A stretch of 32,293 nt of DNA from an uncultured Neomegalonema sp. (lineage in GTDB: Bacteria > Pseudomonadota > Alphaproteobacteria > Rhodobacterales > Rhodobacteraceae). The stretch covers positions 1 to 32,293 of the forward strand of contig CAZBIG010000001.1 of assembly GCA_964491865.1 (NCBI GenBank). The letters run 5' to 3'. Position numbers and translations under genes: made by a program. This document shows, one piece after another, positions 1,946 to 26,300 of this stretch (position 1 is the stretch's first letter; every line of letters begins with the position of its first letter). The notes under the pieces were generated by a model that worked only from the letters and a program-made list of their open reading frames with translations, was not told the DNA's origin and did not search any database.

Positions 1946-1955
1946 GCGCGGCGGC

Positions 1956-1987
1956 GCGCGGGAGCGGCCGACACGCCGCTCCCGCGC
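1956..1987. terminator. GC-rich hairpin between convergent genes (candidate bidirectional terminator)
   Basis: Perfect 13-bp stem GCGCGGGAGCGGC (1956..1968) pairs with GCCGCTCCCGCGC (1975..1987) around the 6-nt loop CGACAC. It starts 11 nt after the helicase stop. No T-tract follows on either strand, so this is not a canonical intrinsic terminator. Confidence 0.45.
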
Positions 1988-2021
1988 CATCTGCTCGATG
2001 TCGCGGCGACGTGGTCCCCCA

Positions 2022-2045
2022 CCCGTCGGATGAGCGGGCGACGGG
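2022..2045. terminator. Second, weaker hairpin downstream of gph
   Basis: 7-bp stem CCCGTCG (2022..2028) pairs with CGACGGG (2039..2045) around a 10-nt loop, about 34 nt beyond the gph stop on the minus strand. No U-tract. Confidence 0.25.
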
Positions 2046-2078
2046 GCTTAGATCAGGGCGCTCTTTGGGGGCTGCGGA

Positions 2079-2735: not shown

Positions 2736-2850
2736 GGCGGCTTGCTCCCTCGAACCACCGCGCCGACGCGTTGAACAACCGCGCCGGCGCGTCAATGCGC
2801 CCTCGGCCGGCGCGCGCCCGCTTCCCCCCTCCGCGGGGCCCGCCCGTCGA

Positions 2851-3771: not shown

Positions 3772-3819
3772 CGGGATCTCCTTCGACTGCGGGGCGCCGC
3801 GGACGGGCGCCGGAACGAC

Positions 3820-4530
3820 TTACCGCCCGTCGCCGCGCGCAGCTTCGGCCGCGGCGCGAAGGGCGCTGATGTTGTCGGCGTAGGCGCTCGGCGCCGCCGC
3901 CGAGCCGCCGCGGAAGACGGCCGACCCGGCGACCAGCACGTCCGCCCCGACGGCGGCGACCATGGGCGCCGTTTCGGGGGTCACGCCGCCGTCGATTTCA
4001 AGGTGGATCGGACGGTCGCCGATCATTGCGCGCAGCGCGCGCGCCTTTTCCACCTGCGCGTTGATGAAGGACTGTCCGCCGAAGCCCGGGTTCACCGTCA
4101 TCACGCACACCAAGTCGAGCTTATCGAGCACATGCTCGAGCGCCGCGACCGGCGTCGCCGGATTGAGCGCCGCGCCCGCCTTCGCCCCGAGATCGCGGAT
4201 GCGCTGAAGCGAGCGATCGAGATGGGGTCCCGCTTCGGCATGCACGGTCACGATGTCCGCGCCCGCCTGGACGAACGCCTCAAGATAGGGGTCGGCCGGC
4301 GCGATCATCAAATGGACGTCCATCACGCCCTGGATATGAGGCCGGATCGCCGCGCAGGTCTGCGGACCGAAGGTGATGTTCGGCACGAAATGCCCGTCCA
4401 TGACGTCCACATGGACCCAGTCGGCGCCCGACGCTTCGACAGCCCGACACTCGGCCCCGAAGTTCGCGAAGTCCGCCGCGAGGATAGACGGGGCGATCTT
4501 GATCGATCGGTCGAACACGGGCGCGCTCAT
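3820..4530 (-). CDS. rpe: Ribulose-phosphate 3-epimerase
   Basis: KIAPSILAADFANFG...WVHVDVMDGHFVPNITFG...DVHLM...MTVNPGFGGQSF...EIDGG is the canonical Rpe TIM-barrel signature. Length is 236 aa. Confidence 0.93.
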   Translation of the reverse strand: MSAPVFDRSIKIAPSILAADFANFGAECRAVEASGADWVHVDVMDGHFVPNITFGPQTCAAIRPHIQGVMDVHLMIAPADPYLEAFVQAGADIVTVHAEAGPHLDRSLQRIRDLGAKAGAALNPATPVAALEHVLDKLDLVCVMTVNPGFGGQSFINAQVEKARALRAMIGDRPIHLEIDGGVTPETAPMVAAVGADVLVAGSAVFRGGSAAAPSAYADNISALRAAAEAARGDGR

Positions 4531-4650
4531 GGCGTAAAGGGCTTTCTGTGGCGCGCGCTAAAGGGCGCTGGCGAGGCGACGCCTCGCCTTGTGCGGAGAC
4601 CGACGGCCCCTTGTCAATCGCGCCGCCTGCTGCCGCCTGGCGCCGCCAGA

Positions 4651-4666
4651 TGTGCGGCAGCGCACA
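4651..4666. promoter_or_regulatory. TGTG-N8-CACA palindrome (weak CRP/FNR-like site or small hairpin)
   Basis: TGTGCGGCAGCGCACA has a perfect 6-bp inverted repeat, TGTGCG/CGCACA. It lies 121 bp upstream of the rpe ATG. Confidence 0.25.
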
Positions 4667-5080
4667 GCGGGTCTGCGGCCCGCCCGGATCGCGCCGCGCC
4701 GATCATTACGGACGACGCCGCGAATAGGTTGCAATACTCCCGGCTGTCGACCGCCCCCTTTGACAAACCGACAGAGTCGCCGCTCTCTCCAAATGCCCAA
4801 AGCGATCTCTAAATGTTTCGCACCCTCTGCAAAGCCACTTTGATTTTCAAGATCGAACATGGCTTGAGCATTCTTGAATTTTTCATTTCTACTATTTTTG
4901 TACGCTTCTCGATTTCGTACGCATTTACAAGAGTTTTTGCATCAAATCATACTTTAATCAATCTATTTTCCCGAACAAATTGGCGCAGAAATGCAAAAAC
5001 TTGAAATATCTTATTCGGTTGAACGCAAAAAAGCAATTCAACTGATCTCAAAGCCGTTTTTTTTGGCGCCTTATACATAC

Positions 5081-5096
5081 TGTGATCTAGATCACA
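5081..5096. promoter_or_regulatory. Perfect CRP-consensus palindrome TGTGATCTAGATCACA (CRP/FNR-family operator candidate)
   Basis: This 16-bp perfect palindrome, TGTGA-N6-TCACA, is identical to the symmetric consensus core of E. coli CRP sites. It sits at the 3' edge of the AT-rich island, 247 bp upstream of the giant-gene ATG. A -10-like TACAAC at 5113..5118 would put the site centre near -37 to -42 (class II-like geometry, speculative). Confidence 0.55.
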
Positions 5097-5332
5097 GCTC
5101 GTCTCGAGCATTTACAACTGCGAGAGACGGACGGTAAATCGGGAATTGGCAAGGAGTCGGTTGAGAATTCGACAGAGAGCGGGGCGCGGCCGCCTGAAAC
5201 TTCGGGGCGGCGGCGGGCTGATCGCCCGCGCGGCGCGGGACACGCCGCTTTCGGATCGCCTCAACGCCGACGACGACGAATAAGCGCGCTCGACCGGGGA
5301 CCTGCCCCGACAGCTCGAACGCCGCGGGTCTT

Positions 5333-5336
5333 GGAG
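5333..5336 (+). promoter_or_regulatory. Shine-Dalgarno (GGAG) of the giant gene
   Basis: GGAG is followed by the 6-nt spacer TTGACG and then ATG at 5343. Confidence 0.6.
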
Positions 5337-5342
5337 TTGACG

Positions 5343-8300
5343 ATGACCGATGATCGTTGGGTTGACGAGCGGTGGGACGATACCGAAGCGAGCGACGGGC
5401 GGGACGCCCGCGCGCCGGCCGCGCCGCCGCAGGCGATCGCCGCGCCGACGGATCCCGACGCCGAGGCCTCGCTTCACTTCGAGCAGATCGAACCGCGGGT
5501 CTTGCTGTCGGCGGATCCGATCACCGCGAGCACCGACGCCGCGGAAATCATCGTTCAGACCGAACAGCTTGAAGATTACGACGGCGACGGAACCGCGGAC
5601 TCGGCGCTGACCGTGCGCGACGGCGACGGGCTGCTGGTGAAGTCCTGGAACCTCGCGACCTTCGGGGGCGACGATGTCGGCGCCACCCTCGAAATCGACG
5701 GCGCCGCCCCGGACGCCGGCGTTTCGCAGACCCTGACGATCCTGCACAGCGACGAGCTTGCGCGCTATGTCGACGAAATTCGCATCGACGGGGTCGAACC
5801 CGGCGCGCCGGCGTCGGACCGCTCGGCGATCGACACGATCGTGTTCGACAGCGCCAACGAAAACTACGATCTGGGCATCGACGCGGACCTCGATCTGCTG
5901 ACCGGCCGTCTGGCGGTGCAAGGCCTGCTGGTGGCGTTCGACGGCGGCGTCCGCATCGAAACGCCGGACGTCCTGCGGTCGGTCGATGTCAGCGTGATCG
6001 CGGACCGGGTCGAAACCGACCCCGCCGGCGGCGCGTTCAGCGTCGCCGAGGCGCTCGTCGGCGGTTCCGCTGCGATTTCGGGCGCGGTCGGCCTGTCCAG
6101 CGGCGAGACGCTGATCGACTTCCTGCTGCCGACCAGCGTTCAAGAACTGACCTTCTGGGGATCTTTCGGCGCCGACCAGCTCGAGATCGGCGGGGCGGCG
6201 GCCGCGGTGTGGGCCGTCGAGGGCGAGGTGGCGGACACCGGCCTGTTCGGCGCGGTCGAGGGTCGATCGTCGCCGCGGCTGGCCTTCCAAGGGATGGACG
6301 CGTTCGTGGGCTCGGCGGGCGACGACACGCTGCTCGGCTACGATGTCGGCGGCGCGGGCCTGTGGACCGTCGAGGACGAGGGCGTCTTCACCGCGTATGA
6401 CGCCTCGTTCTCGGGCTTCGAGCGCTTCGAGGCCGCGGGCTCGGGCGACACGATCTACTTTAAGGAGAACGGTTGGCTGAGCGCCGGCTTCGACGGCGGG
6501 TCGGACGCGACGCTGATCCTCGAGAGCGCGATCGACGCGCTTTCGGTCGCTCTCGACGCGACCGGCGAGGGCGTGATGACGCGCGGCGGTCAGACCGTCG
6601 CCGTGTCCGGCGTGACGCTCGTTGAGCGGCAGGACGAGAACAACGTCACGATTTTGTTCAACGACACGGACAACAACGTGACGCTCTCGTACGGCTATTT
6701 CGACGAGACCGACCTTGAGGACGCGCGCGACGCGAAAAAACAACCGTTTACGGGGGGCGCCGGTTATTATTGGCGTGTAAGCGAACAGGGCAAGGACGAC
6801 CGCTTCTTCAAAACGCCGCAGAACACGATCCGCTTCGATCTCGGGGCCGGGGCCGACCGTCTGGTGGTCGAGTCGACCGACACGTCGTTCAGCGGCAATC
6901 TCATCATCAACGGCGGCGCGGACTCCACCGTTCCGATCTTCTCGGCGACGAACTTTACGGATCCGTTCAACTGGGAGTACGAAGGCGACGAAGTCGTCTT
7001 CAAATCGGACGTCTTCACCGGCGGCGGCGACATCAAGGTCCGGGCCGAGGAAATCTTCGTCCGCTCCGGGGTGGCGCTCGACACGCGCCGCGGCGTTCAA
7101 AGCAACGGCGCGTTCCGGTCAACCGGCGACTCCGGCAAAATCGACCTCTTCGGCGAGAAAATCAAACTCCGCACGAACAGCGCGCTGTTGGCTGGCGCGA
7201 CCGGCGCGTTCAGCGCCGGCGACGTGCTGCTCGAAGTCGAGGAGGAGACCAAGCGCTATTTCTTGTCGCCGATCTCGCTGGCGGAGCGGGTTGTCGAAAT
7301 CGACGTCGCTCAGGGGGCTCGGGTCGAGGGCGCCAATGTCCGCATGATCGCGCGGGCGACCGACCTCGGCAGCGCGAAACACGCGCAAACCAAAGATCGA
7401 GACGCCGACCAGCCCCGCTTCTTCAGCGGCGTCTACGACGACTTCCAAGTGATGTTCCAACAGTTCCCGATCGCCTTCCTGAACCCGACCGGGATGAACG
7501 CCAGCGTCGGGATCCGCCAGGCGGACGCTTTCGTGACGGTCGACGGGGCCAGCATCGTGGCGTCGGACAGCGTGAAGCTGCGGACGAAAACCGATGTGAG
7601 CGCGAACGTCCAGGCGTTGGTCTACGATTCCTACCTGAACCAGCAAGCCGAGGCAGGCCGGACGGCCGGAGACTCCAAGACCAAGGGCATGACGCCCGAA
7701 GTCGCCGTCGCCTGGTCGCAAGTCTTCACCGAGAGCAAGGCCGTCGTGAAGGGGGGGTCAACGATCGTCGCCGGCGGCGACGTCGACATCATCGCCCAAG
7801 GGGCCGCGAGTTCGACGACTCTCGCCCGCATGTCCACGAACTTGCTGAGCAACAGCTTTTACAAAAAGAACCCGCAAGACTTCTCGGCCGCGGCGAACGC
7901 GGACAACAAAACGGGTTATAACGGCTCTCTGTCGGACAAGCATCGATCTTTCGCCTTCACCACAGCTTGGGTTGAAGCCGATCTGACGGCGCAATTGCGC
8001 GACACCAGCTCGATCGTCGCCGGCGGGGCGGTGAACGTTCTGTCGACGGGCTCGGCCAAGGCCAAGGGCGAGACCTCGATGAGCCTGTACCTGAACGTTT
8101 CAGGCGGCGCGGGCACTGTGTTCACGATCGACAAGTCGAAATCGCGGGCGATCGTCGAAGGCGACATCACCGCCGGGGGCAAGTTGCAGTCCGGCAGCAC
8201 CTTCGACGCGGCGGACCCGTATACGATACACTTCGACACGCATCTCGATTCCTATGTGATCGAGATGAAAGATCACGGCTTCGAAACCGGCGACCAAATT

Positions 8301-11300
8301 ACTTACCAGATCGGAGACAGTGAAAACCCAGCCTTGGCGTCGGAAATTCCGGGTCTGACGGACGGCGAAGAATATTTTGTCCTCAAAGAGAGCGACGACA
8401 TCTTCCGCCTCAGCCCGATCGCGCCGATCCAAATGGACGTCGGCGCGGCGTCCTCGACCAGCACGCACGATCTGCGGCGATATGAGACGACGACCTTTAT
8501 GATCGACGTGGTGTCCGACAACACCATCGACATCGGCGACCATGGTTTCGACGACGGCGATCGCGTCTATTACACCCATGAGGGGCGGGCTGGCAGCGAC
8601 CTGGGCCTCGCCACCGACGGGACCTGGCACCGCGTCGTCGCTGTGAACGAGAGCGCCTTTAAGCTGATCGAAGAAAGCACCTATGCGGCGCTCGTCGAAA
8701 ATGGCGCATGGCTGTTCGACGACTCGAACCTCGAAAACATCAATGACGACGACTTTGTCGAGATCAAGGAGGGCATTGGCGGCCTCCACCGTTTCTACAC
8801 CGCGGGCCAAGCTCTGAGTTCGGCGCAAGGTCAGCAATTGAAGCTTGTCGACCACGGGTTCGAGACGGGCGACGTCGTCAGCTACACCTTCGCCGGAGCG
8901 CCCGGCTCGGAGCTGAGATATCTTGAGGACGGCGCGGAGCGGACGCTGTCGCACCATGGCGACGCCTTCGATACGGAGGTCCAGCAATATGTCGTCGTGG
9001 TCGAGGACGTGTCCGATACGGATGGGGACGCGAGCGACTATTTCCGCCTGGTGAAGATCGAAGACTGGCCGACGGTGTACGAAGACCCGGGGCTGGTCGA
9101 CGCGTTCGCGCTCGACTTCAGCCCCACCACCGAAGGCGGCGAGCATCGCTTTTTCGCCGAGCGAAACCTGGCGGTCGAGGCGCGCGCTTTCCGCATCGCC
9201 GAGATTTCGTTGAGCGACGCGGCCGACAACGCGAACACCTTTTACATTCCGGAGCACGGCTTTCAGACCGGCGACTTGGTGACCTACGGCCCGCTCGAGG
9301 AGTTGAACGGTTCGGGCTCGCCGCGGTGGATTCTCGGCCCCACCCTCGACCTCGAATACTACGTGCATGTGCCCGACCCGGTGAACGACCCCGATCGGCT
9401 CCGCCTGATCGAGGTGACCTCGATCGAAGACCCGACTGATTTGGCCTCCTTCGACAGGGCGGACGCGGTCGAATTGACCGTCGCGGACGGCGTCGACCTG
9501 CTCAACGAGCATTTTCTTCACGGCGCCCGCCATGTCGCCAGCTTCAATCCGGAACTCGTCAAGGGCGGCGATGCGCGCAATCCCGACAGCGGCTCGATCG
9601 ACCCGACGCGCGACGCGCTTTACTTCGCCGACGGCCACGGATTGGCGACCGGCGACCTTGTCACCTATGTGACCGACCAGTCGGTGACCAACCCGGTCAC
9701 CTTCCCCCATGTCGCGCATCACCTGTCGTTCGATCCCCGTCAATCGATCGCGCACGGCATCGAACAAGCGACCTACGAACTCGACGTCTTCATCAATGAC
9801 GACCATCTGATCGATATCGACGGCGGGCTCGAGAACGGCGATTTCGTGATCTACGAAGCGCGCGACAATGAGCTCGGCTCGCTGGTCGACGGCGCGCGCT
9901 ACCGCGTCCTGTTCAATCACTTGGACGGCGACGGCGCGCCTGATCCGTCGCGCTTCGTGCTGATCGCCGAAGAGAACTGGGACGACGCCTTTGTCGCCGA
10001 CGTCGCCGCCGCCAACGACGTCATCGAGCGTTTCGGCAGCGCGAACGCCGATAATCACAGCTTCACCCGCTATTTGTTCGACGACGACATCGATGGCGAG
10101 GCGGTCGGCGTCGTCTATATGTGGGGCAACAGCTTCCAAGACGGCGACCTCGTCACCTATCGCGCCGATCCGGCGACCGGCCCGATTGACGGCCTGACGG
10201 ACGGCGAGACCTATCGGGTGATCTTCCGCTCGTATACGGACGCCGGGCGGCTCGACCCCGACCGGTTCTCGCTGGTCGAACAGTCCGAATGGAACCGGGT
10301 CGGCTGGGAATTCGGCCAACCCAAAAACCGCCTGAGCGCGGTCGAATTCGGCCCCGCGTCCGGAAACCACGCCTTTGTCGGCACAGGCGATCTGCGATCG
10401 ATCCACGATAACGCGCTCGGCATCCAATACGGCGAGGAACTGGGCCTCAAAACCGGTCAAAAAGTTCAATACTGGTCCGGGACGTATTTAGAGACGGCGC
10501 TTGGCGACGCGGACGGCGTCACTTTCGCAAGCGACGACACGCTGTTTTTCGAGGGTCACGATCTCGTCGACGGCGACCTGGTGCGGTATCACCATGGCGG
10601 CGAAGCAGAAGACGCGATCTCCGGGCTGCAAATCGACCAAGACATCTATCGCGTCATTAACGCCACCGAAGACAGTTTTCAGCTGGTCCTCGACACCGAC
10701 TATCAGGCCGCGCTCGCCGCGGGCGACGAGGTGTCGTCGCTTGCGCCGATCGACACGCTCGGGAACGACGGCGAGCTCGACCTGCCGAACGACCATCTGT
10801 TCATGAAAGTCGTCGACACCAGCATCGACGGGCTCGTCGACCAGCAATATTATTACGTCATCGTCGACTCCGAAAACCCGGGCCTGCTGCGGTTGGCGGA
10901 GACCCGAGACGACGCGCTCGCCGGCGTGGCGATCGAGATCGTCGGCCATGATCCGCTGTCGGCGGTGCTCGGGGCGGCGGAGTCCCTGCACGAATTGAAG
11001 CTGGTCGTCGAAAACGAAGACGATTTTGATCTCGGATATTTCGAGCGGAAGCTGATCGACTTCGAGACCCCGACGGGTGAAGCCGCTGATTACGAGATTT
11101 CAGGCCTCACCCTCGGCGAGAAGTACACCGTCGTCGTGATCGACGATCATTGGATCCGCTTGCTGACCGAGGACGAGCTGCTGGGCGCGGACGCTGCGAG
11201 CGGCATCCTCATCGAGGGCCGCGGCGCGGGCGACGCCCACCGCTTCACGCTCGACGGCCTCCGAGACGGTGTTCAAGTCGAGGCGGATCTCGAGACCAAG

Positions 11301-14300
11301 CACATTGCAAAGTCTAAGCAGGAAGTCGGCATTTCGTTCAACTGGGCGAAATGGAAGGACTTTTTCAAGTTCGGGGATGTTTTTGCGTCCATCTTCTTCA
11401 TGGGCAGCGCGTACGGCACTAGTCAGTTTTACAAGCCGGACCCAAAACAACAGGAAAACCTCCAGAAACAGTACGAGAAAGAGACGGTGAAGTTCGCGGT
11501 CTCGACCGGCGTCACGCTGGTGGAGCAGACGGTCGAGGCTCTGGTCGGCGCCAATGCGCCGGAGGGGGAGACGACGGACATCGTCAGCGGCGACGCCGTT
11601 ATCATTCGCGCAACGTCGAAGCAGAGCTCGAACCACAACGTCCAGTCGACCCTTGAAAAGTCGAAAGGCAAAGGCGGCGATTTGTTCGCGGTGGCGTTCG
11701 GCTTTGCGATGATCGAAAACACCGGACGGGCCGTGGTCGGCGATCAAGGCCGCATCGACGCGGCGGGCGACGTGACGGTGACCGGCAAGGCGCTCAACCC
11801 GTTCAACGTGCCGATCGAGTATCTGTTCTTAGGTTGGCAAGACCATTGGGCGTCGAGCGGTTTCAGCGCCCTGTCGGACCGTCTTGACGGCAATGGCGGT
11901 CTGGGAACCATTTTCCTCAATAACTGGGTCACCTCATTCGCCAAAGGCGAGAACACGGATGACCGATCGGGAAGCGCGTCGACCTATGCGCTCGCGGTCG
12001 CGACGAACCTCTATTACAATGACGCTATTGCGAAGGTTTCGTCGGGCGCGCGGATCAATCGGGACATCGACCGCCTGACCGCGCTCGGGGCCGCGGCGAA
12101 ATCCGACCGGAGCGTCGAAGTCCGCTCGGTGATCACAGAAAAATTCGCCTTCGCCACCGGGGTCGCCAAGACCAGCTATGATATCGGCCTGGCGGCGAAG
12201 TTCTTCGCCAAAAAAAGCGCGTCCGATGTGCTCAAAGGCGCATTCCGGTTTCGCGGCGCCGGCGCCCAGCGCGCAATCGGCGCCGCCATCCATGTCGAAG
12301 TCAGCAAAAACAACTCCCATGCGACCATCGAGGCCGGCGCCGAGATTACGACGGGAACGGCTGGCGACCTAAAGGTGATCGCCGACGAAGAAATCTTCCG
12401 CCTCGCGCTGGCAACCGCCGGCGGCCGTGCGCACGAGGGTTTCAGAGACAAGGCGGACCGCGGGACCCTTTCGGCCGCGGGCACCGTGACCTGGTACGAC
12501 TTGGCGAGCCAAGTCTACGCCGGGATCGTCACCAATGACGAAGCCGGCGTCGTCGTCGAAGGCGGCGACGTTCTGGTCAAGGCTGATTCCGACGTCGAAA
12601 GCGTCGCGATATCGGGCATTGAGATCAGCGGAGACCGGAACACGGTCGGCATCTCGTTTACTTCAAGCTATTCCAAGCGTGACGTCGCCGCATTCATCGG
12701 GGCGCGGTACGATAAATATGACGACAATCCGGCAGAGAACTCGGTCGACGGCCAAGCTCGATTCGATGTGGGCGACGTTCGGGTTCAATCGGACAGCGAC
12801 GGCTTTATCGTCAGCGGGTCCACCGCCGGCACGCGCTCCATGGATCATTCGCATTACGATTTTGAGCAGCTGGCAGGTGATCCGGAGCGGAATGAAGCGC
12901 TCAGTACAGTGTCCGCGGCACAAACCACAGCGCCAGGACGCCGCCCGAGCTATGCGCCGTCAACCCAAGCGGACGGACTCAGCGCTGTTGCTGGCGGCGT
13001 GACGTCTTCCGGCTCGATCTCTCTCGTGTACCTGGGCGACGACACCTTCGCCTATATCTCCGATCGTGGTCAGTGGTCTGTCGACGATGTCGACGTCTCA
13101 GCCAAGGCGGGGACCTCGGTCGCGACCGCGACGGGCGCCGCCGCGCGGACGAAGAAGCCTAAATACACCCTAGAAGCGCCTGCGCGCACAAGCGGGTCCA
13201 CCACGATCGGCGGGGCGGTGTCGATCAATGTGGTCGAGACTGCGACCCACGCCTTCGTGCGCGACGTCGATCTCGAGCAGCGCAACGCTGACGACGCCCC
13301 GGTCGTCACGGTCAAGGCGAGGCGGACCGGCGACATAAATTCGTTCTCGGCCGCTCTCGCCTTTGACAGCGTGAGGTACGAGGAAATCGCAGAGGTTGAG
13401 CTCATTCCGGACAACTCGAGGTCGTTCGCCGCGGCGAATTCAATGAGTTTTGTCAAGGACGAGGTCAACGCGCAGATCGTCAACGCGTCGCTCAGCGGCG
13501 AGGGGACCGCGGCGGCGGGCGATCTCACGGTGATCGCCGCGCATGAAGGCGATGTGCTCGGGGTCGGCGGCGGCGCCAGCTACGGCACGGGGGCCGGCGC
13601 GGGCGGCTCGCTGGCGCTCAATTTCGTGTCGGCGAGCGCAAACGCGAAAATCGAAAACTCGGACATCGCCGTCGACGGCGACGTGTCGGTATTGGCCCGC
13701 AGCGACGTCGATGTGCACGCAGTCGCGATCAGTTCCGGCGTGGTCGGGAAAGTGGCCGACGGTCAAACCAACACCCGCACGAGCGCCTTCGGCTCGACCG
13801 TCGCGGTGAACTGGGTCGACTCGGACGCGGCGCTGTTGGACGACGAAGTCGACGGGCGCGCAAACCTGCCCGATATCAACGCCACGATCGCCAACAGCCG
13901 CATCGTGGCGGGCGGCGACGTGATCGTCGAAGCGCAAGACGACTCGAGAATCGCCTCTCTGGCCGGCGCGATGGCGATCGGCGGCACCAGTTTCGGCTGG
14001 GGCTCGGCCATCTCGATCAATGTGATCAGCACCGAGGTGGACGCGAAGATCGAGGGCGACAGCCATGTCGCAACGCTGAACGGCGACGTGACGCTGCTCG
14101 CGCATTCGACGACCGACGAGCTGCCGCGCGTCCCGTTGCCGAGTTTGAAGGTCACCTTCAGCTTCTCGACCATCTCGGGCCAGAGGTTCGTGCCCTATCC
14201 CTCTGGCGGCGGGGTCAGCGGCGGCAAATCGCCGTTTAACGACGGCGCCGACTCGAAAATCATGACGCTGGGCGTCAGCGGGGCCGGCGGCCAGGGCGTG

Positions 14301-17300
14301 ACAATCGGCCGGTCCCAGAGCGTCAACGTGATCACGTCGAAAGTGCGCGCGACGGTCGGCGACGGCGTCACGATCGAGAGCGGCGACGATGTCGAGGTCT
14401 TGGCGTCGGACGAAGCGGTGATCCGCTCGATGAACGGCGCGATCTCGGTGAACCTGAGCGCCGTCGCCTGGCGCGGCGCCGGCTACAGCGCGGCGATGAC
14501 CAGCAACGTGATCGACGCCGCCACCACCGCGCGGGTCGAGGACGCGACGATCCTGGCGGCGGGATCCGTTCGAGTGCGCGCCGATCAGGCGGCCCAGTCC
14601 CACGCCATCGCGTTCGGCGCCAGCGGCGGAACGGCCGGGGCCTCGATCGGCGGCTCGTCGCTCGGCGGATCGGTCGCCCTCGCGACGGTTTTGAACACGG
14701 TCATCGCGCATGTCGGCGAAGGCGCCAGCGTCGTCGCGGCGGAAGACGTCCATGTGAAGGCGGTGAACCGCGGCGTCGGCACCGCCGGCGCCGGCGCGCT
14801 GTCGGCGTTCGCCGGCGCGGCCGGCGGCAGCACCGCGGCGTCGGTCGGCAATCTCACGATCATCAACAAGACGTTCGCCCGCGTCGACGGCGACGCCCGC
14901 ATTTTCGCCGGCGCGGCGGGCGACGGGTTCGACGACCTCGACGGGCGCACCCGGCACGGCGTCGCTGTCGAAGCCAAGTCGCGCTATGTGTTTACGGTCG
15001 TCTCCGCGAGCGGGGCCGTGTTGATCGGCGCCTCGGGGGCCGCCTTTGGCGGCGCGGCCAACGCGAACGTCGTCGAGGACCGCACGAAAGCCTATGTGAC
15101 CGAAAGGTCCGGGGCGGGGGCGCCGACGATCCGGTCGCTGGGCGACGTCGCGATCAACGCGCGCAGCGAATTCGAGATCACCTCGGCCGCCGCCGGCGCG
15201 GGCCTGTCCATCGGGCGCGGGGCCGGCGCGGGCGTGGAAGTGACGATCGCGTCGCGGCAGACCGCCGCCTATGTGGCGAGCGGCGGGGTGATCGACGCCG
15301 GCGGCGACGTGGTCGTGACCGCCGAGGCCGATGATCAGCTCATGCTTCTGGGCCTCGCCTACGGCGGATCGCTCGGCAGGGCCGGCGCGGTCGCGTTCGC
15401 CCTCGACGTGGGCGCGCTCGCTCTCGAGACGACGGCGAAGATCGGGGCCGACGCGCGCGTGACGGCGATCGGCAACGTGGCGGTGACCGCGCTTTCGGAC
15501 GTGGAGCTCGACCACGCGGCCGGCTCTTTGGCGGTCGGGATCGACGCCGTTCCGGGCATCAGCCCCGCCACCGTCTCGGCCAGCGGCGCGGCGACCGTGG
15601 TCGACAAGACCACGCGGGCGGTGATCGCCGAAGGCGCGCAGGTGTCCGCCCTCGCCCAAACCGACGCGATCGAGGTGATTACGGGGCGGATCACGCAAGG
15701 CGAGGCCTATGACCGCACGGCCTCGCGCGAGATCCAGGTCGACGTCGATCCGACCGCCGATCTCGCGGCGGACGGCGTCACGATCAATTCCGCGAGCCAC
15801 GGCTTCCTGACCGGCGACGAAGTGCTCTACGTCGCGAGCGCGCGCGACATGGGCGACCTCGTCTCGGGCCGCAGCTATGTCGTCGTCAACGCCGACGCGG
15901 ACAGTTTCCAACTGGCCGAGAGCGCCGACGGCCCCGCCCTGTCTCTGACCGACGGGACGCTGCTGGGCCGGAACGACATCCAGACCTTCTCGACCGTGAT
16001 CGAGGTGGCGGCGCCGGAGCTGTCGGAAGACAGCGAAGTCCCGCTCGAGGCGGCGCATCGCGGCGATTACGTCGCGGAAACGGCGCTGCGGCGGGGCGTG
16101 ATCGTCGCCGCCGCGTCGATCGACGATCTGGAGATCTACGCCACGACCGGGGCTATGGCGATTTCGAGCGCCTCGGTCGCGATGACGGGCTCGGTCTCGA
16201 CCCACAGCATCGACACCGAAGCGGTGATCCGCCAAGGGGCGCGCGTCAACGACCCGACCGCCTTCGCGCGAAGCGTGGCGCCCGCCGACGTGACGGGCGG
16301 CGCGATCGACGCCTGGGGCCACGGCTTGGCGACCGGCGACCGCGTTGTCTATGCGGGCGCGAGCGTCGCCGACCTTGTCGACGGCGGCGTTTACGCCGTC
16401 ATCGCCCTCGACGCGAACCGCTTCGCCCTGGCCGCGATCGACGCGCCGGAGACGCCGATCGCGCTCAGCGCCCCGTCGACGGCCTTCACGCTGACGCGCG
16501 CCGATCTGCCGGACGCGCACAGCCGCCAAGGCGTCTATGTCGACGCCGGCCGCGGGCATCAGATCACCGTTGTCGGGGCCGGCGTCTCGGCCTCGAAACT
16601 TGCGGCGGCCGGCACGGCGGCGCTGAGCCTGCCGATGTTGGCGGGCGAGACCTACGCCGCGATCGAGGGCGGCTCGGGGGCCGTCGACACTGTGGTGCGG
16701 GCGGCGGGCGACGTCGAGGTGGCGGCCTTCGCCGCCAGCGTGACCGTCGGCTTCGCGGTCGGCGGCGCCGGCTCGGTCGGGATGCCGGCGCTCGCCGGCG
16801 CGGCGACGGCGGCGACCATCGACACCGACACGATCGCTCAGATCGCGGGCCAGGCGCGCGTGACCGCGGGCGGCAACGTCGCGGTCTTGGCGCAGGACGA
16901 CACTCAGGTCTACAGCGTCGCCGGCGCCGGCGCTTTCAGCTACGGCGCGAGCGCCGGGTCCGGCGCCATTTCGACGGTCATCATCCAGAAAGACACCAAA
17001 GCGTCGATCGAAGGCGCGTTCGTCGACGCCATGGGCGCGGGGCCCAGCACGGTCGGCGGCGTGACCGACGGCGGCTATGACGAGACCGGCGCGCCGGGCG
17101 CCGTCGACGGCGTCCGCGGCGTCGTGGTCGACGCCTCAAGCCGCGAGATCATCGAAGCGATCGCCGTCGGCACGGCGGCCGCGGGGGCCGGCTTCACCCT
17201 TTCGGGCTCGGTGGTTCACGTGTTCGCCGACAGCGACACGGCCGCCTTCGTGCGCGACGCGCAAATCAACCAGAACACGGGCCCCGGCGCGCACGCCGAG

Positions 17301-20300
17301 CAGTCGGTGCTCGTGGGCGCGCGCAACATGCTCGACGCGACCGCGGGCGCAGGCGGGTTGAGCGTGCAAATGGCGGGGGTCGCCGTCGGCGCGGCCTTTG
17401 GCGTGGTCACATTCCGCAACGACACCACGGCTTTCATCGGCCATGAGGGCCTGGCCGGCGACACCTCGGAAGTGCGCGCCGCCGACACGGTCGCGGTGCG
17501 CGCGGTCGGCGATCAAAAGCTCAACAACGTCGTCGCCGCCGGGGCGATCTCGCCGTTGTTCATCGGCGCCGCCGGGGCCTTCGCGGTCGTCAGCGTCGGC
17601 CAGGACGCCCAGAAAGACTGGAGCGACGGCCAGGGCAATGTCGGCTCGCTGTCCGAAGCGCAGGCGACCACCTCCTCGGAGAACTCGGGCGACGTGGTCG
17701 GCGAGTCGGACGAAGCGCTCGGCAATTTCTCGGGCGGCTATGAGGCGACCGCGCCCGAAGGGCTCGCCCTCGACGCCGGCGCGGTCGAAACCGCGGATAT
17801 CGGCCTTGTGCCCGGCGCGACCTATGTCGTGATCGCCGCGGACGGCGACGTCTTCCAGATCTCCGACGCCGAGGGCGGCGCGCCGATCACGATCGACATC
17901 GACGCGATGACGGCGGAGGAGCGGTATCTGTTCACAACCGCCGAGGGCGCGCGGTTGAGCTTCACGGCCGACGACACGGCGATCGACGCCAGCGGCCAGG
18001 TCGACGGCGGGCTGTTCTTCATCGCGGACTCGGCGCTTCAGGTCGGCGATCAACTGACCTTCGAGGCGCCCGGGCGGGTCTATCTGACCGAGGAGAACGG
18101 CCAGCGCGCCGGGTCCGGTTGGTCGACGGGCGCGCTGGTGGTCTATGACAGCGGCGCGTCGGCGGCGTTGTCGGGGCTGGTCGACGGCGCGGCCTATTAC
18201 GTCATCGCCGACGAAGAGCTCGAGGGCGGCGTCCGGCTGGCGGACAGCTATGAGAACGCGCTGGCCGGGATCGGCGTCTCGATTTCGGCCGGAGAAGGCG
18301 ACGGCCATCGCCTGATCCGCGCCTTGCCGACCTTCGATCCGGCCGGTCCTCGGGTCGACGAGGCGACCGGCGCGATCGACCTGGAATATGATTTCGGCCT
18401 GTCGACGGGCGATCTCATCCGGTACAGCGCGTCGGACGGCGAAGCGCTTGGCGGGCTCGTCTCGGGCCGCGCCTATTTCGCCGTGGTGGACGCCGAGGAT
18501 CCGACGAAGATCCGGCTGGCGGGGTCGCGAGACGACGCCTTCGCGGGCGCGCACATCGCCTTCACGGTGGGCGACGCGTCGGGCGCGGCGCACACGCTGA
18601 CGCCGATCGGCGACACCGGCGGCGGGATCAACTCGGGCGCGGCGCTGAGCATGGACGGGTTGGGCCGCCAGAGCGCGGCGCCGTCGCTCGAGGCGTTGGT
18701 TTTGTCGACGCCGAAGACCAGCGGCGTGACCGCCATGATCTGGAGCGACGTCGTCATCGACGCCGCCGATCTCGAGGTGACGGCGACCCTCGACAGCGAT
18801 CTCGACGTGACCGCGACCGGCGTGGGGATGGGCGGGGCGCAGCCGGCCGGCGGCGTCGGGGTCGGGATCGGGATCTCGACCGTGGTGGTCAACAACGACG
18901 TGACCGCCGAGGTGGTCGCCGGCTCGGGCGCGCTCGACGGGCGCACCACCCGCTTGAACGGGGCCGGGGCGCTCGACGTGACGGCGGATTATCGCGGCTC
19001 GGTGGACGCGGTCGCGGTGTCGGGGGCCGGCGCGTTCGTCGCCGCGGCGGGCTCGGCGGTGGTGATCCAGGACAGCAGCGACGTCAAAGCCCTGCTCGGA
19101 ACCGGCGCGCAGGACGCGTCCCAGGGCGTGGCGGTCACGGGCTTCGACGCGGTGACGGTCGCGGCCGACGGGCGGCTGCGGGCCGGGACGTTCGCGTCCC
19201 ACTTGATGCGGGCCGGCGGCGGTCTGGGCGCGAGCGTGGTCGATGTGCGGACCTCGGGCGACGTCATCGCGGCGGTCGGCCCGCACGGCCGGATCGGAAC
19301 GCCCGGCGATACGATCGGCGATCTGACGGTCTCGGCCACGCGCGCGATGTCGAACGATCAGGTCGACGCGCTCGACGACGTCTTCGACCGCGACGCGAGT
19401 TCGATGGCGCTCGGGGGCTCGGCGGCTCTTATCGGGGCCGTCGGCATGGCGGCCACGGCGATCGACCGCGGCGACGCCGTCGCCGAGATCCGCGAGAACG
19501 CGCGCGTCGACGCGACGGGCGTGCTGACCGTCGCCGCCGACGCGTCCGCGCATGTCCGGGCGACCGCGGCCGCGCTGCAGTTCGGGCTGAAGCACGCCGC
19601 CGGCGTGGTGGTCACGCGCGCCGAAAGCCGCGGCGACGCCCGCGCGCGGATCCTGGGTCAAGACGGCGCGCCGGCCGAAACCGACGCCCCGGCGATCCGC
19701 GCCGGCGGCGTGTCGGTGACGGCGCAGGCGGATAATCGCGCCAAAAGCTCGGGGAGCTCTCTGGCGATCGGCGCCACGATCGCCGCCTATAACCAGTCGG
19801 ACGCGGTGGTTTCCGGCGACGTGACGGCGCTGATCGGGGACCACGCGCATGTGGTCGCGGCGGCGGGCGGCGTGCTGGTCGGCGCGACCGGGCGCCTGCA
19901 CGGCGAGGCGGTGATCAGCGGCGCGACCGTCTCTTACGGCTCGGTCGCCGCGGGCCAGGCCCGAACCGACGTGTCCGGCGGCGACGTCGCGGCGGCGATC
20001 GGGGCCGGCGCGATCGTCCGCGCCGCCGCCGGGGTGGGCGTACAGGCCCGGTTCGAGGCGGCCGAGGACGGCCGCGCGGCCTACGCGGAAACGCTGGCCG
20101 GATCGGGCGACCTGGTCGGGCTGAACCTGCATTGGGCCGAGGCGCGATCCGACGTCGACTCGACCGCTCGGGTCGGGGCCGGCGCGATCATCGACGGCGG
20201 GGCCGGCGCGGTGGGGATCAGCGCGGTCTCGCATCGCAACACCGCCGAAGCCCGCGGCGACTCGGTGGCGCTCGCGGCGCTTGCGGTCGGCCAAATCGCG

Positions 20301-23300
20301 ACAAACAGCGAGGCGCGCGGCGAGGCCCGGGCCGAGATCGCCTCCGGCTCTTCGGCCGGCGACGGCGTCGTGATCCGCGGCGCCGGCCTGTCGATCACCG
20401 CCGACCAGGCCGCGAGCGCCGACACCACCAACAAAAAGGCCGCGGGCGGGGTGGTCGGGACCGTCCATGTCGCGCCGGCCACGGCCGACGCCATCGTGGA
20501 CGCGACCGCTCTGATCGGAGACCATGCGCAAATCGCGGTGGACGGCGATCTGACGCTCGCCTCGGACGCCAAAGCCGAGGCCGACGCGCGGATCTTCGCC
20601 GCCGCCGCCTCGCTTGGCGCCAACATCACCGTCTCGGACGGCGAGGTCGAGGTTCGACCGACGGTCAAGACCCGGATCGGCGCCTACGCCGATCTGGCGG
20701 CGGACGCGGTGACGATCACGGCGACCGCCAACGACTTCGACAAAACGCCGTTCGACGACCGCATCTCGACCGTCGACATCGCGGCGAACCGTCTGACCGT
20801 GAACGGCGACGCGGCGGGCCACGGGCTGGTCGACGGGCAACTGGTGCTCTACGACGCGGGCGGCGCGGCGGGGCTCGCCTCGGGCGATCCGGCCGCGAAC
20901 GATCTGGACGATCCGGCCAACGCGCATCTGCATCTCGACGAGACCCGGGCCAACACCGCGCTCGAAAGCGGGCGCCTGTACCGCGCGCTGGTCGACAGCG
21001 CGACCACCTTCCAATTCGGCGAAGAGTTCGCCGGGGTCGACATCGACGACGCCACCGACACGATCACCTTCGTCGACGACGCCGGCGTCCCGCGCGCCCA
21101 CAGCTTCCGCGACGGCGACGTGGTGCGCTACTACGCGGTCGACGGCGTCGCGGCGCCCGGGCTCGAGGACAGCGCCGACGGCGAAAGCGCGGCGTATGAA
21201 GTGATCGTGGTGTCCGCCACGCAGATCCAGTTGCGCCCGGCGTTCGACGCGCCGTTCGCGGCGTCGCACGGGTTCGACCCCTCGAAGGTCTACGACGCGG
21301 AGACGGGAGAGTTGGTCGAGGCCGAGACCGAAGCCGAGAGGTCCGTGCGCGACAGCGTGATCACGCTTGACGGGCACGGCTTCCGCGACGGCCAGGCGGT
21401 GGTCTACACCGCGCCCGAAGCCTCGGCGTTCACCGGCGGCGGCGTCGACGCGGTCACCGACAGCGAGGGCGCGTTGGTCTACGACGCCGACGGCGCGCAA
21501 GTCTATGGGGACGACGACACCCTCTATCTTGGTCAGAACGACTACCAAGACGGCGAAGAAGTCGTCTATCTCGGCGTCTCGGGCGTCGAATTCCAGACCC
21601 GCGACGTCGACCTCGACGCCTCGTCGACCCGCATCACGGCGATCAACCACGGGTTCTCGACCGGTCAGACGGTCCAATACGTCGCCGCCGAGCACGACGC
21701 GGGCGACGAGGTCTCGGTCCGCACGACGACCGAGCGCTTCTACACTATCGGCGACGTCGAACACGTCCTCGACGGCGCGACGGTCTCGGAAGCCAAGTCG
21801 AAGGCGCTCGGGGGCCTGGCGCTCGACGGCGAGTACATGGTGATCGTCCATGACGCGAACACCATCTCGCTGCAGCAGGTCGCCACGGCCCCGGACGGAA
21901 CGCCGCTGGTCGACGTCAACGCCGCGCTCTCACTGTCCGCGCCGGCCTTCGACGGGGCGGTCACCCATTACCTGACCCCGACCACGATCGCGGTCGAGGC
22001 CGAAGACGGCGGGACGACCTTCCAGCCGACCGAGACGATCGACGGGCTGGACAGCGGCCGGCGCTACGTCGTCAAGCACTTCGACGCGACCGGAACGCGG
22101 GTCCAGCTGTTCGAGCGCACGATCGACACGCGCTTCGAGACCGATCCGGAGATCGTCGAGGACACCGGCGAGCGCCATGTCTACGACAGCGTCGGCGACG
22201 TGACGGTCGCGTTCGGCGAATCGGCCGGCGCGCTCGGCGCGAGCGCGCCCCACATCTTCGATCTGGCCGGCCACGGCTTCGCCGAGGGCGAGGTGGTGCG
22301 CTATTCGGCGGCGACCGCGGCGATCACCGGCCTGGTCGAGGGCGCCGACTATGTGGTCAGCCTCAGCCATCCGGACGGACGCGCGCTTGACGGGGCGAAC
22401 CAGTTCGTCCTGCTCGACGGGCCGGGGGGCGCGCTGGTCGAAGCGACGGCGCTGGCCGCAGGCGGCGGCGACGCGCACAGCTTCGAAAGCGTGCGCCAGC
22501 TCGAGGCGGTGATCTACGAAGCGCGCAGCGTGACCCGTGAGATCGCCGAGACGCCGTCGGTCGATTTCGCCGCGGGCCCGATCGCGCTGTCGGCGGCCGC
22601 GGAAGACCGCCAATCCGGCGCCGTCCATAGTCTGAAGCGGCCCGGCGCGCGGGCGATCGACGGGCTGATCAGCGGCGTGACCTACTACGCCGACGTGCTC
22701 GACGCCGATCGTCTGCGCTTGGCGACGACCGCCCAAGACGCCGCCGCCGACCGCTTCATCACGCTGGACGCGACCGGCGTCTCGGGCCTGCACGGCCTCG
22801 GCGCGATCCGGGTCGACCTCGCGCGCGACGACGCCGGCGCGACCCACCGTCTGGCGATCGACTTCAGCGAAACGCCGAGCGGGGCGGACGCGCACCGTCT
22901 GTTGTCTTCGAGCGGCCTGCCGCTCAACCTGCGCGCGACCGCCTCGGGCGACGGCCAAAGCTCGGTGTCCTTCACCACCGGAAGCGGCGCGCTGGTCGGC
23001 GACGTTTCAGTGAACCAAGGCGATCTGCGCCAGGTCGTGACGTCCGAGATCGACATCTTCGCCTCGGAAATCGCGGCGCGCGGCGACGTGACGGTCGGCT
23101 CGCGCGCGAAGACCGACGCCTTGGCCGACGGCGACGCGCTGTCGACGGCCTTGATCGCGACCGTCGGTTCGAACCATGTCGAGGCGGATGTCGACACCAT
23201 CAGCCGGGTCGTGATCGGCGGCGTCGACCCGACCCGGTCGGACGCCGGCGCGATCGGCACGCGCATCGCCTCGGCCGGCGACGTGACCATCACCACCGAC

Positions 23301-26300
23301 GCCGACACCGAAGCCTACGTCGCGACCGAGCGCGCGGCCGGCGGGCTGATCGGGGTCAACGTCGCGGGCGGCCGGCTGACGGTCGGCTACGCCAGCGACA
23401 TCGTTTTGGGCGCGGGCGAGATCGCGGCGCCGGGCGATTTGACGGTGGCCGCGCGCGCCTCGACCGAAGGCCGCGCCACCACGCGCTCCGACACCGGCGG
23501 CTTGGTTCCGGTCGCGACCGCCTATGCGACCGTGAAGATCGAGGGCGGCGGCGCGAACGGCGCGCGGCTCGACATCGCGCGCGACGGCGCCATGCGCCTG
23601 AGCGGCGGCAAGGTGGCGCTGGCGGCCGAAACCCGCGAGCTGACCGCGAAGGCCAAGGCGCGCGCGGGCTCTTACGGCGTTATCGGCGGCGTGCGGGCGG
23701 AAGCCGACGTCGAGGCCGATGTCGAAAACACGGTTCGGCTGCGCTCGGGCGCCGAGGTTCAGGCCGACTCGGGGCTCGACATCACGGCGGCGTCCGACAA
23801 GGTCGCGACCAAAGCCGACGCCAACGCGACCTTGACAACCTTCATCATCTCGGCGGACGCGTTGGCCGACAACAGCACGCGGGTCGACGCCTTGGTGCAA
23901 GCCGACGACGGCGCGGCGACCATCGTGGCCCCGGGGGCCGACGCGGACGCGCTGACGGTCCGCGCGGACCGGGGCGAGGTGAACGCCGACGCCGACGCCA
24001 ACCGGCGCGTGCCGACGATCAAGATCAAAATCAAGACGCCCTGGAAGACCTATAAGATCCGGATCGAACTGGCGGGCGGCAAGCGGGACAACGATACGAA
24101 GAAAAGCGGCGAAGAACAAATCGTCTGGAACGCCGACATCGCGGCGGCTCGGGGCGAAGCGCCGATCCTTTTGATCAACGAAAACCGCGAAATCGAACAG
24201 CTGAGCGGGTTTGTCGTCAATCAGGTGAGCGGGCGCGGCGCGACGCGGCTCGACGAGGGCGCGGCGTTCGAGGCGGGCGCGGACATTCAGGTCGAGCGCG
24301 TCTCGACCGGGTCGGAGAGCCGGGTGGTCTTCGAGGCCGAGACCATTTCGGGCTCGGGCGGCGAGGCGTCTTTGTCGCCGACGCTGGGGAGCGTCTACAT
24401 CGTCAATCGCTCGGACCTGGATCTGATCGTCGAAACGCTCGACCTGGCCGACGACGACCCCGAGCTGACGATCGAGGCCGTCGGCGACTCGTCGCTGTCG
24501 TTCGCCGCGACGACGCGCGAGGTGCTGTCGACCGATCTGCTTATCCAGAACACCCACGCCGGCGCGGATCTGACGCTGGCCGGGACCATCGACAACGGCG
24601 TCGGGGCGACGCGGCTGATCACGGCCGGCGGGGCGATCCTGTCGAGCGGCTCGGGCCAGCGGCTCGAGACCAACACCCTGACCGTCGAGACCGGCGGCGC
24701 GGCGGGCGACGTCGGCGACGCGAGCGCCCGGCTGTCGATCGATCTGGTCTCGTCGGCGGACCGCGAGGCGGCGATCGACATTCAGGCCTCGGGCGCGATC
24801 TTCCTCGATCTCGGCGTGATCGCGCGCAAAGCCGGCGCCGCCGGCCCGATCGCGTTCGACGCGACGCGGATTTGGGCGGCCGGCGACGCGGCCGACCTGC
24901 GCCTGCGCACCGCGATCCACCAGCAGCCGGGAACCGCGAGCGGCCGGATCACCGGCGTCAACGTCGCCGCCCCGGGCCAACTCCAGGCGCCGACGGCCGC
25001 GCGCGGCGGCGGCGGCGACACGGCGGTGGCGCTCGACCTGTCCTTCGGCGCGCAGAGCGGCCTCGGCCTGCGCTCGAGCGGGATCGTGTCGATCGAGCGC
25101 GCGGACGCGGCGCTCGGAACCGACCCCGCGATCGACATCGACGCCGTCGTCAGCGCGCCGGCCCAGAGCGGCGCGGTCTATGTCGTGACCGACGGCGACG
25201 TCGCGCTCAGCGCCTTCGCCAGCGCCTTGCCGGTCGGCCAGGTGGTGTCGACCTTCGGCGACGTGACCTTGACCGCGGACGCGATCACCGACGCCGAAAG
25301 CGACGGGGCGGCGATCGAGCCCGGCGCCTGGTTCGACGGCGCGTACGGGCCGGCCGACGTCGTCGGCGGGGCGATCTCCCTCTTCGCCGGCGCCGGCGGC
25401 GTCGGCGCGGCGGCCCAGCATCTGGAGATCGACGCGGGCTATTCGGGCGCGGGGGCCGCGAGCGCGACCGCCGCGGGCTCGGTCTATCTCGCCGACACCT
25501 CCGGCGACTTCCTGGTCGCCTCGATCCGCGCCGAGGGCGCGACCCCCGAGACGGCGCGCGTGGTTCTGAACGCGCTTGACGGGTCGCTGCTCGGGCTGGG
25601 CGGCGAGGGCCCCTCGGTGACCGCGCATGCGATCGACTTGCGGGCCGCCGGCGCGGTCGGCTCGGCGACCGAGGCTTTCCTGGTCGACGCCGGCGTGCTC
25701 GCGGGCGGGACGCCGTCGGACGGGCAGGTCGGCGCCGAGGGCGTCGACGGCGTCCACCTCGCCGACAGCGACGGCGCCTTGCGCGTGCTGCAGGCGGTGT
25801 CGAGCGGCGGCGACGTGCGGCTGGTCACCCGCGATCTGGCCGCCGCCGAAGGCCAGGACGAAGACGTCGTGCTCCTCGGGTCGGGCGACAGCCACGCCGT
25901 GGAAGGCGGCGCGACGCGGATCGACGGCGGCCGGATCGAAGCGGCCGGCGCGGTCGTGGTGCGGGCCGGGGACGACGTGGTCTCCGAGGCCGGGACGCTG
26001 ATCTCGGCCGGGCAGACCGTCGAGATCTACGGCGACGACGGGGACGCCGACGCCGGCTACGGCGCGCGCATCCTGTTGTCGGGGACCCTGCGCGCCGGGG
26101 CGGCCGCTTCGGGCGTGAAGTCCGTCGACCAGGCGGTTTCGGTGTTCGGCGGCGCCGACGCCGACCGGATCACCCTGTTCGAGACCACGCTCGAGGCTCA
26201 GACCAACGTCTACGGCTCGGCCAGCGCGATCGCCTCGACGACGGCCGACGGCCGCGACCGGTTAGAAGCCGTGCGGCTGCGCACGATCACGACCGAAAGC

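Follow-up and report, generated by a model that had tools for sequence, protein, structure and literature searches.

We analysed a stretch of 32,293 nucleotides (the window) from an uncultured Neomegalonema sp. (contig CAZBIG010000001.1, assembly GCA_964491865.1), in which a single giant open reading frame (ORF) encodes a protein motif, HG[FL]xTGDxVxY, that recurs in four clusters. The motif is predicted to mark a self-folding small β-barrel domain of about 85–90 residues, and the models point to a barrel of the endosialidase-barrel/E1-FCCH type rather than to a hairpin or a classical SH3 domain. By their own criteria, the repeat belongs to neither of the two corresponding Pfam families, PF12195 (End_beta_barrel) and PF16190 (E1_FCCH). 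Our reading is that it forms a distinct, uncurated family, placed with the endosialidase barrel in one small-barrel superfamily, and it probably shares its fold with E1 FCCH. At the level of sequence profiles, the unit is shown to be homologous to modules found in giant flagellins, in LEPR-XLL/RTX giants from several phyla and in the gp7 and tail-fibre giants of cyanophages. Judged by the libraries consulted, what is new is an unnamed, widespread family; the fold class is already known.

Recurrence and arrangement of the repeat

The repeat is confirmed as real. An earlier note on this DNA, made from the sequence alone, had described the motif in four clusters with at least 12 cores, and this description stands. 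All 12 core positions are divisible by 3 and lie in one open frame (frame 3), and a strict regular expression for the core, H[GS][FL]x(1-2)G[DEQ]x[VIL]x[YF], matches 12 times in the protein and not once in 200 residue shuffles. A looser expression places the core His at 8274, 8541, 8853, 9255, 9636, 15801, 16320, 20820, 21375, 21648 and 22272, one codon after the coordinate first assigned to the core. The core at 18390 is degenerate ('DFGLSTGDLIRY'), the degenerate copy 'AHSFRDGD' is indeed present at 21096, and the unit that had been singled out as clean is located at residues 3565–3620 of the frame. A hidden Markov model (HMM) built and iterated on the window sequence alone gives 24 hits, corresponding to about 20 units, with scores of 13–64 bits; the best of 200 shuffles scores 5.8 bits. 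Several of these window 'units' are halves parted by inserts.

All four clusters lie on the plus strand. Cluster 1 (8247–11252) holds about 9–11 units, covered by hits 1–10 of the window HMM and hits 1–11 of a full-unit HMM of the family. Complete cores are found at 8247–8423, 8514–8678, 9228–9419, 9798–9974, 10104–10286 and 10530–10697, N-terminal halves or insert-split units at 8829–9059 and 9612–9701, and C-terminal halves at 10806–10907 and 11067–11252. Cluster 2 (15771–16529) consists of two clean units, 15771–16007 and 16296–16529, which score 61.7 and 51.7 bits with the window HMM and 53.1 and 43.5 bits with the full-unit HMM over profile positions 3–85; they are parted by about 75 residues of filament-type sequence. 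Cluster 3 (17769–18614) combines one C-terminal half (17769–17954) with two full units (18102–18359 and 18369–18614), to which the full-unit HMM of the family gives 47.5 and 59.0 bits. Finally, cluster 4 (20808–22811) contains about 6–7 units, several with long inserts, which both HMMs place in the segments 20808–20918, 21090–21242, 21348–21458, 21510–21611, 21621–21923, 21999–22121, 22245–22505 and 22635–22811.

Identity among the units within the protein is just 25–40%. At the DNA level the units share short stretches only, with 62–80% identity over the motif codons (DNA repeat families D8 and D14). Since near-identical DNA repeats are absent among the units, the copies are old and diverged and are not an assembly artefact; recent duplication at the DNA level and assembly collapse are both ruled out.

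The unit is longer than the 52–55 residues first proposed for it, which cover the core. The full unit spans about 80–90 residues and includes a tail, 'A..G..I.L...G.G..H.F', past that core. Among 150 family members the start-to-start spacing of the units has its mode at 70–100 residues, and several window units align over positions 3–85 of a 91-position profile that derives largely from sequences outside the window; together these give the length of about 85–90 residues. The consensus was derived from 1,317 units, and conservation is given only where it was measured. It opens with D/N-T-I(77%)-x-L/F-x-x-H(82%)-G-F/L-x-T-G(92%)-D/Q-x-V(75%)-x-Y(92%), continues with G-G-G-x-x-I-G-G(87%)-L(96%)-x-D-G-x-T-Y(95%)-Y-V and D-x-x-T-I/F-x-L(94%)-A, and closes with D/N-A(83%)-x-A-G-x-x-I-D-L followed by G-x-G(80%)-x-x-H(70%)-x-L/F. 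Gly15, Tyr20, Gly30, Leu31, Tyr37 and Leu49 are each conserved above 85%. The strongly conserved positions are mostly Gly, aliphatic or aromatic, and the surface positions are variable; well-conserved polar residues are limited to the two His and a few Asp/Gln positions.

Predicted fold and comparison with named families

For one window unit, from cluster 2, with the 12 window units as the alignment, AlphaFold2 gave a model of four strands with a mean predicted local distance difference test (pLDDT) score of 93.6. A tandem of two units (8247–8840), modelled with 35 tandem sequences as the alignment, reached a pLDDT of 78.9 and shows a fifth strand at the G..H.F tail. The strands run from β1 ('D-T-I-x-L') through the HG[FL]xTGDxVxY hairpin, 'IGGLxDGxxYYV' and 'xxFxLA' to the tail strand. 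This order is identical in both units of the tandem, so the fold is consistent across copies. The compact β fold repeated about 20 times that the earlier note had anticipated agrees with these models; its suggestion of a hairpin or SH3-like fold gives way to a predicted small β-barrel of the endosialidase/FCCH type. Identity as an SH3, Ig-like, Calx-beta or VCBS domain was ruled out, none of them having any supporting Pfam match.

The note had not recognised the family, and this holds for the curated libraries, since none of the Pfam or NCBIfam models reaches its threshold on the repeat; it does not hold altogether, because a phage protein cluster, PHROG 2885, matches significantly and sub-threshold links lead to PF12195 and PF16190. 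We compared the unit with both Pfam families. Window segments have no match to PF12195, nor does any of 12 window units searched singly at E ≤ 10. Among family members the top whole protein scores 21.1 bits and the best single unit has an E value of 8e-5, neither attaining the 35-bit gathering cutoff, and 12 of 73 single family units match at E ≤ 0.1. The best PDB match of the 73-unit profile is residues 201–250 of the phi92 endosialidase (4hiz_A; E 0.036). Aligned by hhalign with seven endosialidase-type barrels, the family profile reaches a probability of 93.8% (E 1.8e-7) over 44 columns, and the window-only profile reaches 81.5% over the 19-column hairpin. An alignable core with genuine endosialidase barrels is present, and the tailspike β-propeller setting is absent.

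The likeness to the endosialidase barrel (PF12195; phi92 endoN92, 4hiz; K1F endoNF) lies in the HG[LF]xxGDxVx[FY] hairpin, in the two strands that follow it, and also in the occurrence of both in phage host-recognition proteins. However, the endosialidase barrel is a single copy inserted in a sialidase β-propeller, whereas the repeat forms tandem arrays and clusters without a sialidase domain; Pfam and NCBIfam searches gave no match to sialidase or propeller families anywhere in the ORF. The repeat also differs in its extra 'A..G..I.L...G.G..H.F' tail and its 'IGGLxDGxxYYV' strand.

The E1 FCCH domain (PF16190; Uba1 3cmm and 7k5j; 2v31, 2lzj) probably shares the small-barrel fold class, and it carries an HGFxxGDxVxF-like motif. 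The window units have no match to PF16190, whose cutoff is 29.5 bits, and 5 of the 73 single family units match it. Three flagellins of the family (P0012, P0042 and P0046) reach 31–43 bits on PF16190 when weak stretches are added up, and P0012 alone has an individual stretch above the cutoff. E1 FCCH is a single-copy part of a eukaryotic, cytosolic enzyme, and a functional parallel is not expected.

Searches against solved structures returned weak signals. By Foldseek, the tandem model matches Uba1 chains with a probability of 0.95–0.98 over about 107 columns at a root-mean-square deviation (RMSD) of about 4 Å, but with E values of 0.08–0.2, and it matches the depolymerase of Klebsiella phage P560 at E 0.035. 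The single unit aligns to Uba6 with a TMq of 0.59 at E 2.5, and has no match in the PDB below E 0.9. Neither cluster 1 nor the window-unit profile had a significant match when their sequences were searched against the PDB.

Relatives in bacteria and phages

We searched a 12-unit window profile against 1.84 billion representative proteins. It matches 3,351 protein clusters at E ≤ 1e-3, 1,401 at E ≤ 1e-10 and 285 at E ≤ 1e-30. The top 150 matches are mostly giants of 1,000–8,000 residues with 5–25 units apiece; by regular expression, 20 of these 150 carry a LEPR motif and 21 carry at least five RTX motifs. Where the sources name the proteins, the names are 'hypothetical protein', 'LEPR-XLL domain-containing protein', 'DUF4347 domain-containing protein' and flagellin, and the organisms named for members are Pirellulales, Planctomycetia, Phycisphaerae, Cyanobacteria, Methylococcaceae and Syntrophales. 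LEPR-XLL and RTX giants with the unit occur in Planctomycetota, Cyanobacteria and Proteobacteria. In eight mid-sized members, Pfam detects essentially no family. A word-indexed protein search found no match for cluster 1, for the N-terminal 968 residues or for the 73-unit alignment; since the index-free search finds thousands of relatives, these null results reflect the limits of the search. Giant repetitive proteins seem to be missed by the word index.

At least four flagellins are among the top matches inspected. In P0005 (1,280 residues) and P0012 (961 residues), Flagellin_N and Flagellin_C lie at the ends and 7–12 units fill the centre; P0042 and P0046 are N-terminally truncated and carry six units before Flagellin_C. 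The giant flagellins P0005 and P0012 share the same unit with the window protein, in regular tandem with a period of 80–95 residues, and there too it is presumably exposed on the surface of a filament outside the cell. They differ in having D0/D1 helices at both ends and flagellar export, and in lacking filament-repeat and RTX segments.

A genome scan showed that one distant locus, in an Actinomycetota metagenome-assembled genome, also bears units; a metagenome scan returned remote RTX relatives only. At the Actinomycetota locus (CAVYLH010000003.1, 2–20877), the giant region with barrel units is open in three overlapping frames (2–10378, 10086–13739 and 12916–20877), and this succession of frames points to frameshifts, to errors in the assembly or to giant genes lying side by side.

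The earlier note had also pointed, tentatively, to similar motifs in phage tail-fibre-like proteins, and the phage searches bear this out. PHROG 2885 ('baseplate wedge subunit') matches clusters 1, 2 and 4 significantly, with E values of 2.3e-14, 1.9e-8 and 9.5e-10, respectively. These matches are local and fall at the repeat positions of its 4,179-position profile; the PHROG itself is a whole-protein cluster and not a definition of the repeat. Foldseek comparison of the unit model with the BFVD returns many phage proteins with TM scores of 0.75–0.83, RMSD values of 1.1–1.6 Å and 25–39% identity, among them a tail fibre of a Leptospira phage and proteins of Synechococcus phages annotated 'baseplate wedge initiator'. 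In a tblastn search of a phage collection, a canonical family fragment matches the tail fibres of P-HM1, P-HM2 and MED4-213, the gp7 proteins of S-SM2 and S-T4, the tail fibres of LE3 and LE4, and a Pelagibacter phage tail protein; cluster 1 itself has no match in that collection by tblastn. The HMM built from the window alone scores 35–55 bits per unit on P-HM1 PHM1_097 (3,676 residues; three units), and the best unit of S-SM2 gp7 (4,156 residues; six units) falls in the same range. The cyanophage giants show true unit homology, and in them, too, the units lie alone or a few together along a giant fibrous protein. In contrast to the window protein, they are virion proteins with other flanking domains, have 3–6 copies each and lack LEPR-XLL and RTX.

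Two further phage proteins contain segments resembling the endosialidase barrel. One ('TITVTLTAHGISVGDKVVFDAT…YTVATV…FTIT') lies in a gene of Prochlorococcus phage P-SSP3 annotated 'major capsid protein' (HQ332137.1, 24157–24585), and the other in a 1,593-residue hypothetical protein of Vibrio phage YC. The endosialidase-type small barrel is thus used in phage structural proteins more widely than its Pfam name implies.

Host protein, role of the barrels and surroundings

The whole repeat is carried by a single plus-strand ORF that runs from an ATG at 5343 to beyond 32291 and encodes more than 8,983 residues, with the frame still open where the window ends. Frame 3 is uninterrupted from 5091 to the window end, and the ATG at 5343, with GGAG six bases ahead of it, is the likely start. 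The encoded protein has no Cys, consists of Asp and Glu to 15% and has a net charge of about −777. Near its N-terminus, residues 44–67 (5472–5543) form a LEPR-XLL motif (LHFEQIEPRVLLSADP) that matches NCBIfam NF012209 (LEPR-8K) at E 9.6e-8 with 31.3 bits (cutoff 17). NF012206 (LktA_tand_53, 'tandem repeat-containing filamentous protein') matches 13 stretches of the ORF at E 8.4e-46 with 154 bits (cutoff 50), so that the protein lies above both cutoffs. These filament segments, which are presumed to be β-helical, sit between and around the four barrel clusters. A local iterated HMM maps the main block to the interval between clusters 1 and 2 (11538–15518) and shorter patches to 7728–8051, 16644–16919, 19680–19748 and 23250–23471. 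At the C-terminal end, RTX calcium-binding nonapeptide repeats are present from 29958 to 32291 and extend beyond the window. They match Pfam PF00353 (HemolysinCabind) in 11 stretches (E 8.6e-51), the sole Pfam family matched in the giant ORF, as well as NCBIfam RTX models, and they contain the DNA repeat families D1 and D2. The RTX region (29918–32293) also shows a higher-order DNA repeat with a period of 165–189 nucleotides (families D2 and D5; 60–77% identity), which corresponds to blocks of about 55–63 residues with several nonapeptides in each.

This combination of LEPR-XLL, filament and RTX segments suggests a type-1-secreted surface fibre or adhesin. The protein resembles giant RTX adhesins of type 1 secretion systems and the LEPR-XLL/LktA_tand_53 giants in its LEPR-XLL N-terminus, its filament repeats and its RTX blocks at the C-terminal end, and other members of the repeat family bear the LEPR-XLL annotation. 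The acidic, Cys-free makeup also fits what is generally known of type-1-secreted RTX proteins. Unlike in RTX adhesins with Ig-like extenders, the extender or bead here is a barrel. We lean towards reading the host as a fibre of the type-1-secreted kind in which the barrels act mainly as self-folding, surface-exposed structural beads or extenders. The giant chain would be exported unfolded, and the barrels would then fold one by one outside the cell, where they may lengthen, articulate or decorate the filamentous shaft. Parallels would be the Ig-like extender domains of other RTX adhesins and the outer domains on flagellar filaments. Three kinds of extracellular or virion fibre make use of the module, and we read its conserved Gly, aliphatic and aromatic residues as determinants of the fold and not as a common binding site.

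Several points weigh against the barrels being structural beads on a secreted fibre. First, we infer the export route from the architecture, and the C-terminal secretion signal and any genes of a type 1 secretion system fall beyond the window. Second, the conserved His (82% and 70%) and Asp/Gln are not obviously needed for a purely structural role. Third, the PDB searches gave weak matches only, and there is no solved structure for any member. Lastly, the barrel of endoNF, the nearest characterised relative, reportedly binds sialic acid, which provides a precedent for a binding role.

The main rival, which we regard as a tentative possibility, is that the units are lectin-like glycan binders, whose many weak tandem sites would give multivalent adhesion to capsules, exopolysaccharides, host or prey envelopes, or algal surfaces. 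Remote homology to the endosialidase β-barrel, which in endoNF reportedly carries a sialic-acid site, argues for it, as do the conserved His, Asp/Gln and two Tyr, and the presence of the module in the tail fibres and baseplates with which phages recognise their receptors; the Foldseek matches include capsule depolymerases of Klebsiella phages. However, the HG[FL]xxGDxVx[FY] hairpin is kept in E1 FCCH, which has no glycan role, and so looks like a signature of the fold rather than of a site. Moreover, the surface positions are highly variable among the units, and no carbohydrate-binding Pfam family was detected. A bolder form of this idea, which we consider unlikely, is that the HGF-TGD barrel is an uncurated extracellular module exchanged horizontally among three unrelated fibre systems, namely the tail fibres and baseplates of phages, the filaments of flagella and the giant adhesins secreted by type 1 systems, acting throughout as a lectin-like multivalent binder of polysaccharides. 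If this were true, bacteria would be equipping flagella and adhesins with the very recognition module by which phages locate cell surfaces.

It is improbable that the units are merely divergent ordinary PF12195 domains and hence members of an already described family. The hhalign alignment and the 12 family units that match PF12195 would fit such membership, but no unit or protein attains the gathering score, and the window units give no match even at E ≤ 10. Besides, the alignment is limited to the 44-column core, outside which the G..H.F extension, the tandem deployment and the missing sialidase propeller set the repeat apart.

We consider it very improbable that the units are metal-dependent folding or ratchet elements, in which His and Asp would bind Ca2+ or a transition metal and folding outside the cell would pull the chain through the channel as RTX blocks do. 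The extremely acidic, Cys-free host with its RTX repeats would suit this mechanism, as would two conserved His and a conserved Asp per unit. However, the module is also found in flagellins, which leave by flagellar type III export, and in phage virion proteins, which are assembled in the cytoplasm, so folding gated by extracellular metal is not a general property of the module; in addition, AlphaFold2 folds the unit confidently without ligands. We give a negligible probability to the view that the motif recurs only through the composition or low complexity of a high-GC ORF rich in Ala, Gly and Asp. The biased composition and the gene's GC content of 62–77% would fit such an artefact, but it is refuted by the shuffles, the confident fold and the thousands of homologues in low-GC organisms and phages.

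The outcome is one of domain discovery and annotation and changes no paradigm. Thousands of very large surface proteins of bacteria and phages are annotated just as 'hypothetical', and defining a domain of about 85–90 residues would annotate a sizeable share of their sequence. One building block would link giant flagellins, the gp7 proteins and tail fibres of cyanophages, and the LEPR-XLL/RTX giants. The unit, small, Cys-free and confidently modelled, would be suited to testing glycan binding against the need for a spacer in fibres.

Base composition shifts along the giant ORF. From 5343 to 13442, a part that includes cluster 1, GC content is 0.73–0.87 at third codon positions (GC3) and 0.50–0.61 at first and second positions; from 13443 to 32291 the values are 0.88–0.95 and 0.56–0.70, respectively. 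The units of cluster 1 contain more Asp/Glu and aromatic residues and less Ala and Gly. The 5′ third of the ORF might be mosaic or recombinant. Downstream of the barrel clusters, a strongly basic patch ('RRVPTIKIKIKTPWKTYKIRIELAGGKRDNDTKK'; about 24000–24110, residues about 6304–6340 of the frame) stands out within the acidic protein and has no family match. Further repeats follow at about 26940–27400 and 27500–28500, where Pfam finds nothing at E ≤ 0.01. One set consists of 'GG/EGxGDDxF' motifs about 30–60 residues apart (GGDGNDVFSV, EGDAGDDAFSI, GGEGDDQISY and LEGDDTFFVLG), and other segments look Calx-beta-like by eye ('TVYVTISAG', 'AAQTVYVTAGDD'). On the minus strand, ORFs of up to 1,571 residues (17136–21851) overlie the giant gene in one frame between 13440 and 31862; they look like a by-product of GC3 above 0.9 and not like genes.

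Upstream of the giant ORF lie three housekeeping genes on the minus strand, encoding a HAD hydrolase (2079–2933), an MBL-fold hydrolase (2851–3771), which has 77% DNA identity to a plasmid gene of Rhodobacter sp. CZR27, and a ribulose-phosphate 3-epimerase (3820–4530). A plus-strand ORF at 2614–4812 (732 residues, without a Pfam match) was rejected as spurious, the real genes being on the minus strand. Two short DNA matches in this upstream part, to a Rhodobacter and a Rhizobium plasmid with 77–84% identity, suggest that the DNA comes from an alphaproteobacterium. Finally, a plus-strand helicase–nuclease gene (2–1945) is cut by the window start; it encodes AAA_11, AAA_12 and a C-terminal REase_MTES_1575 domain, and a 127-nucleotide stretch of it is 84% identical to a gene for a 'DUF3320 domain-containing protein' on a Rhizobium rhizogenes plasmid.

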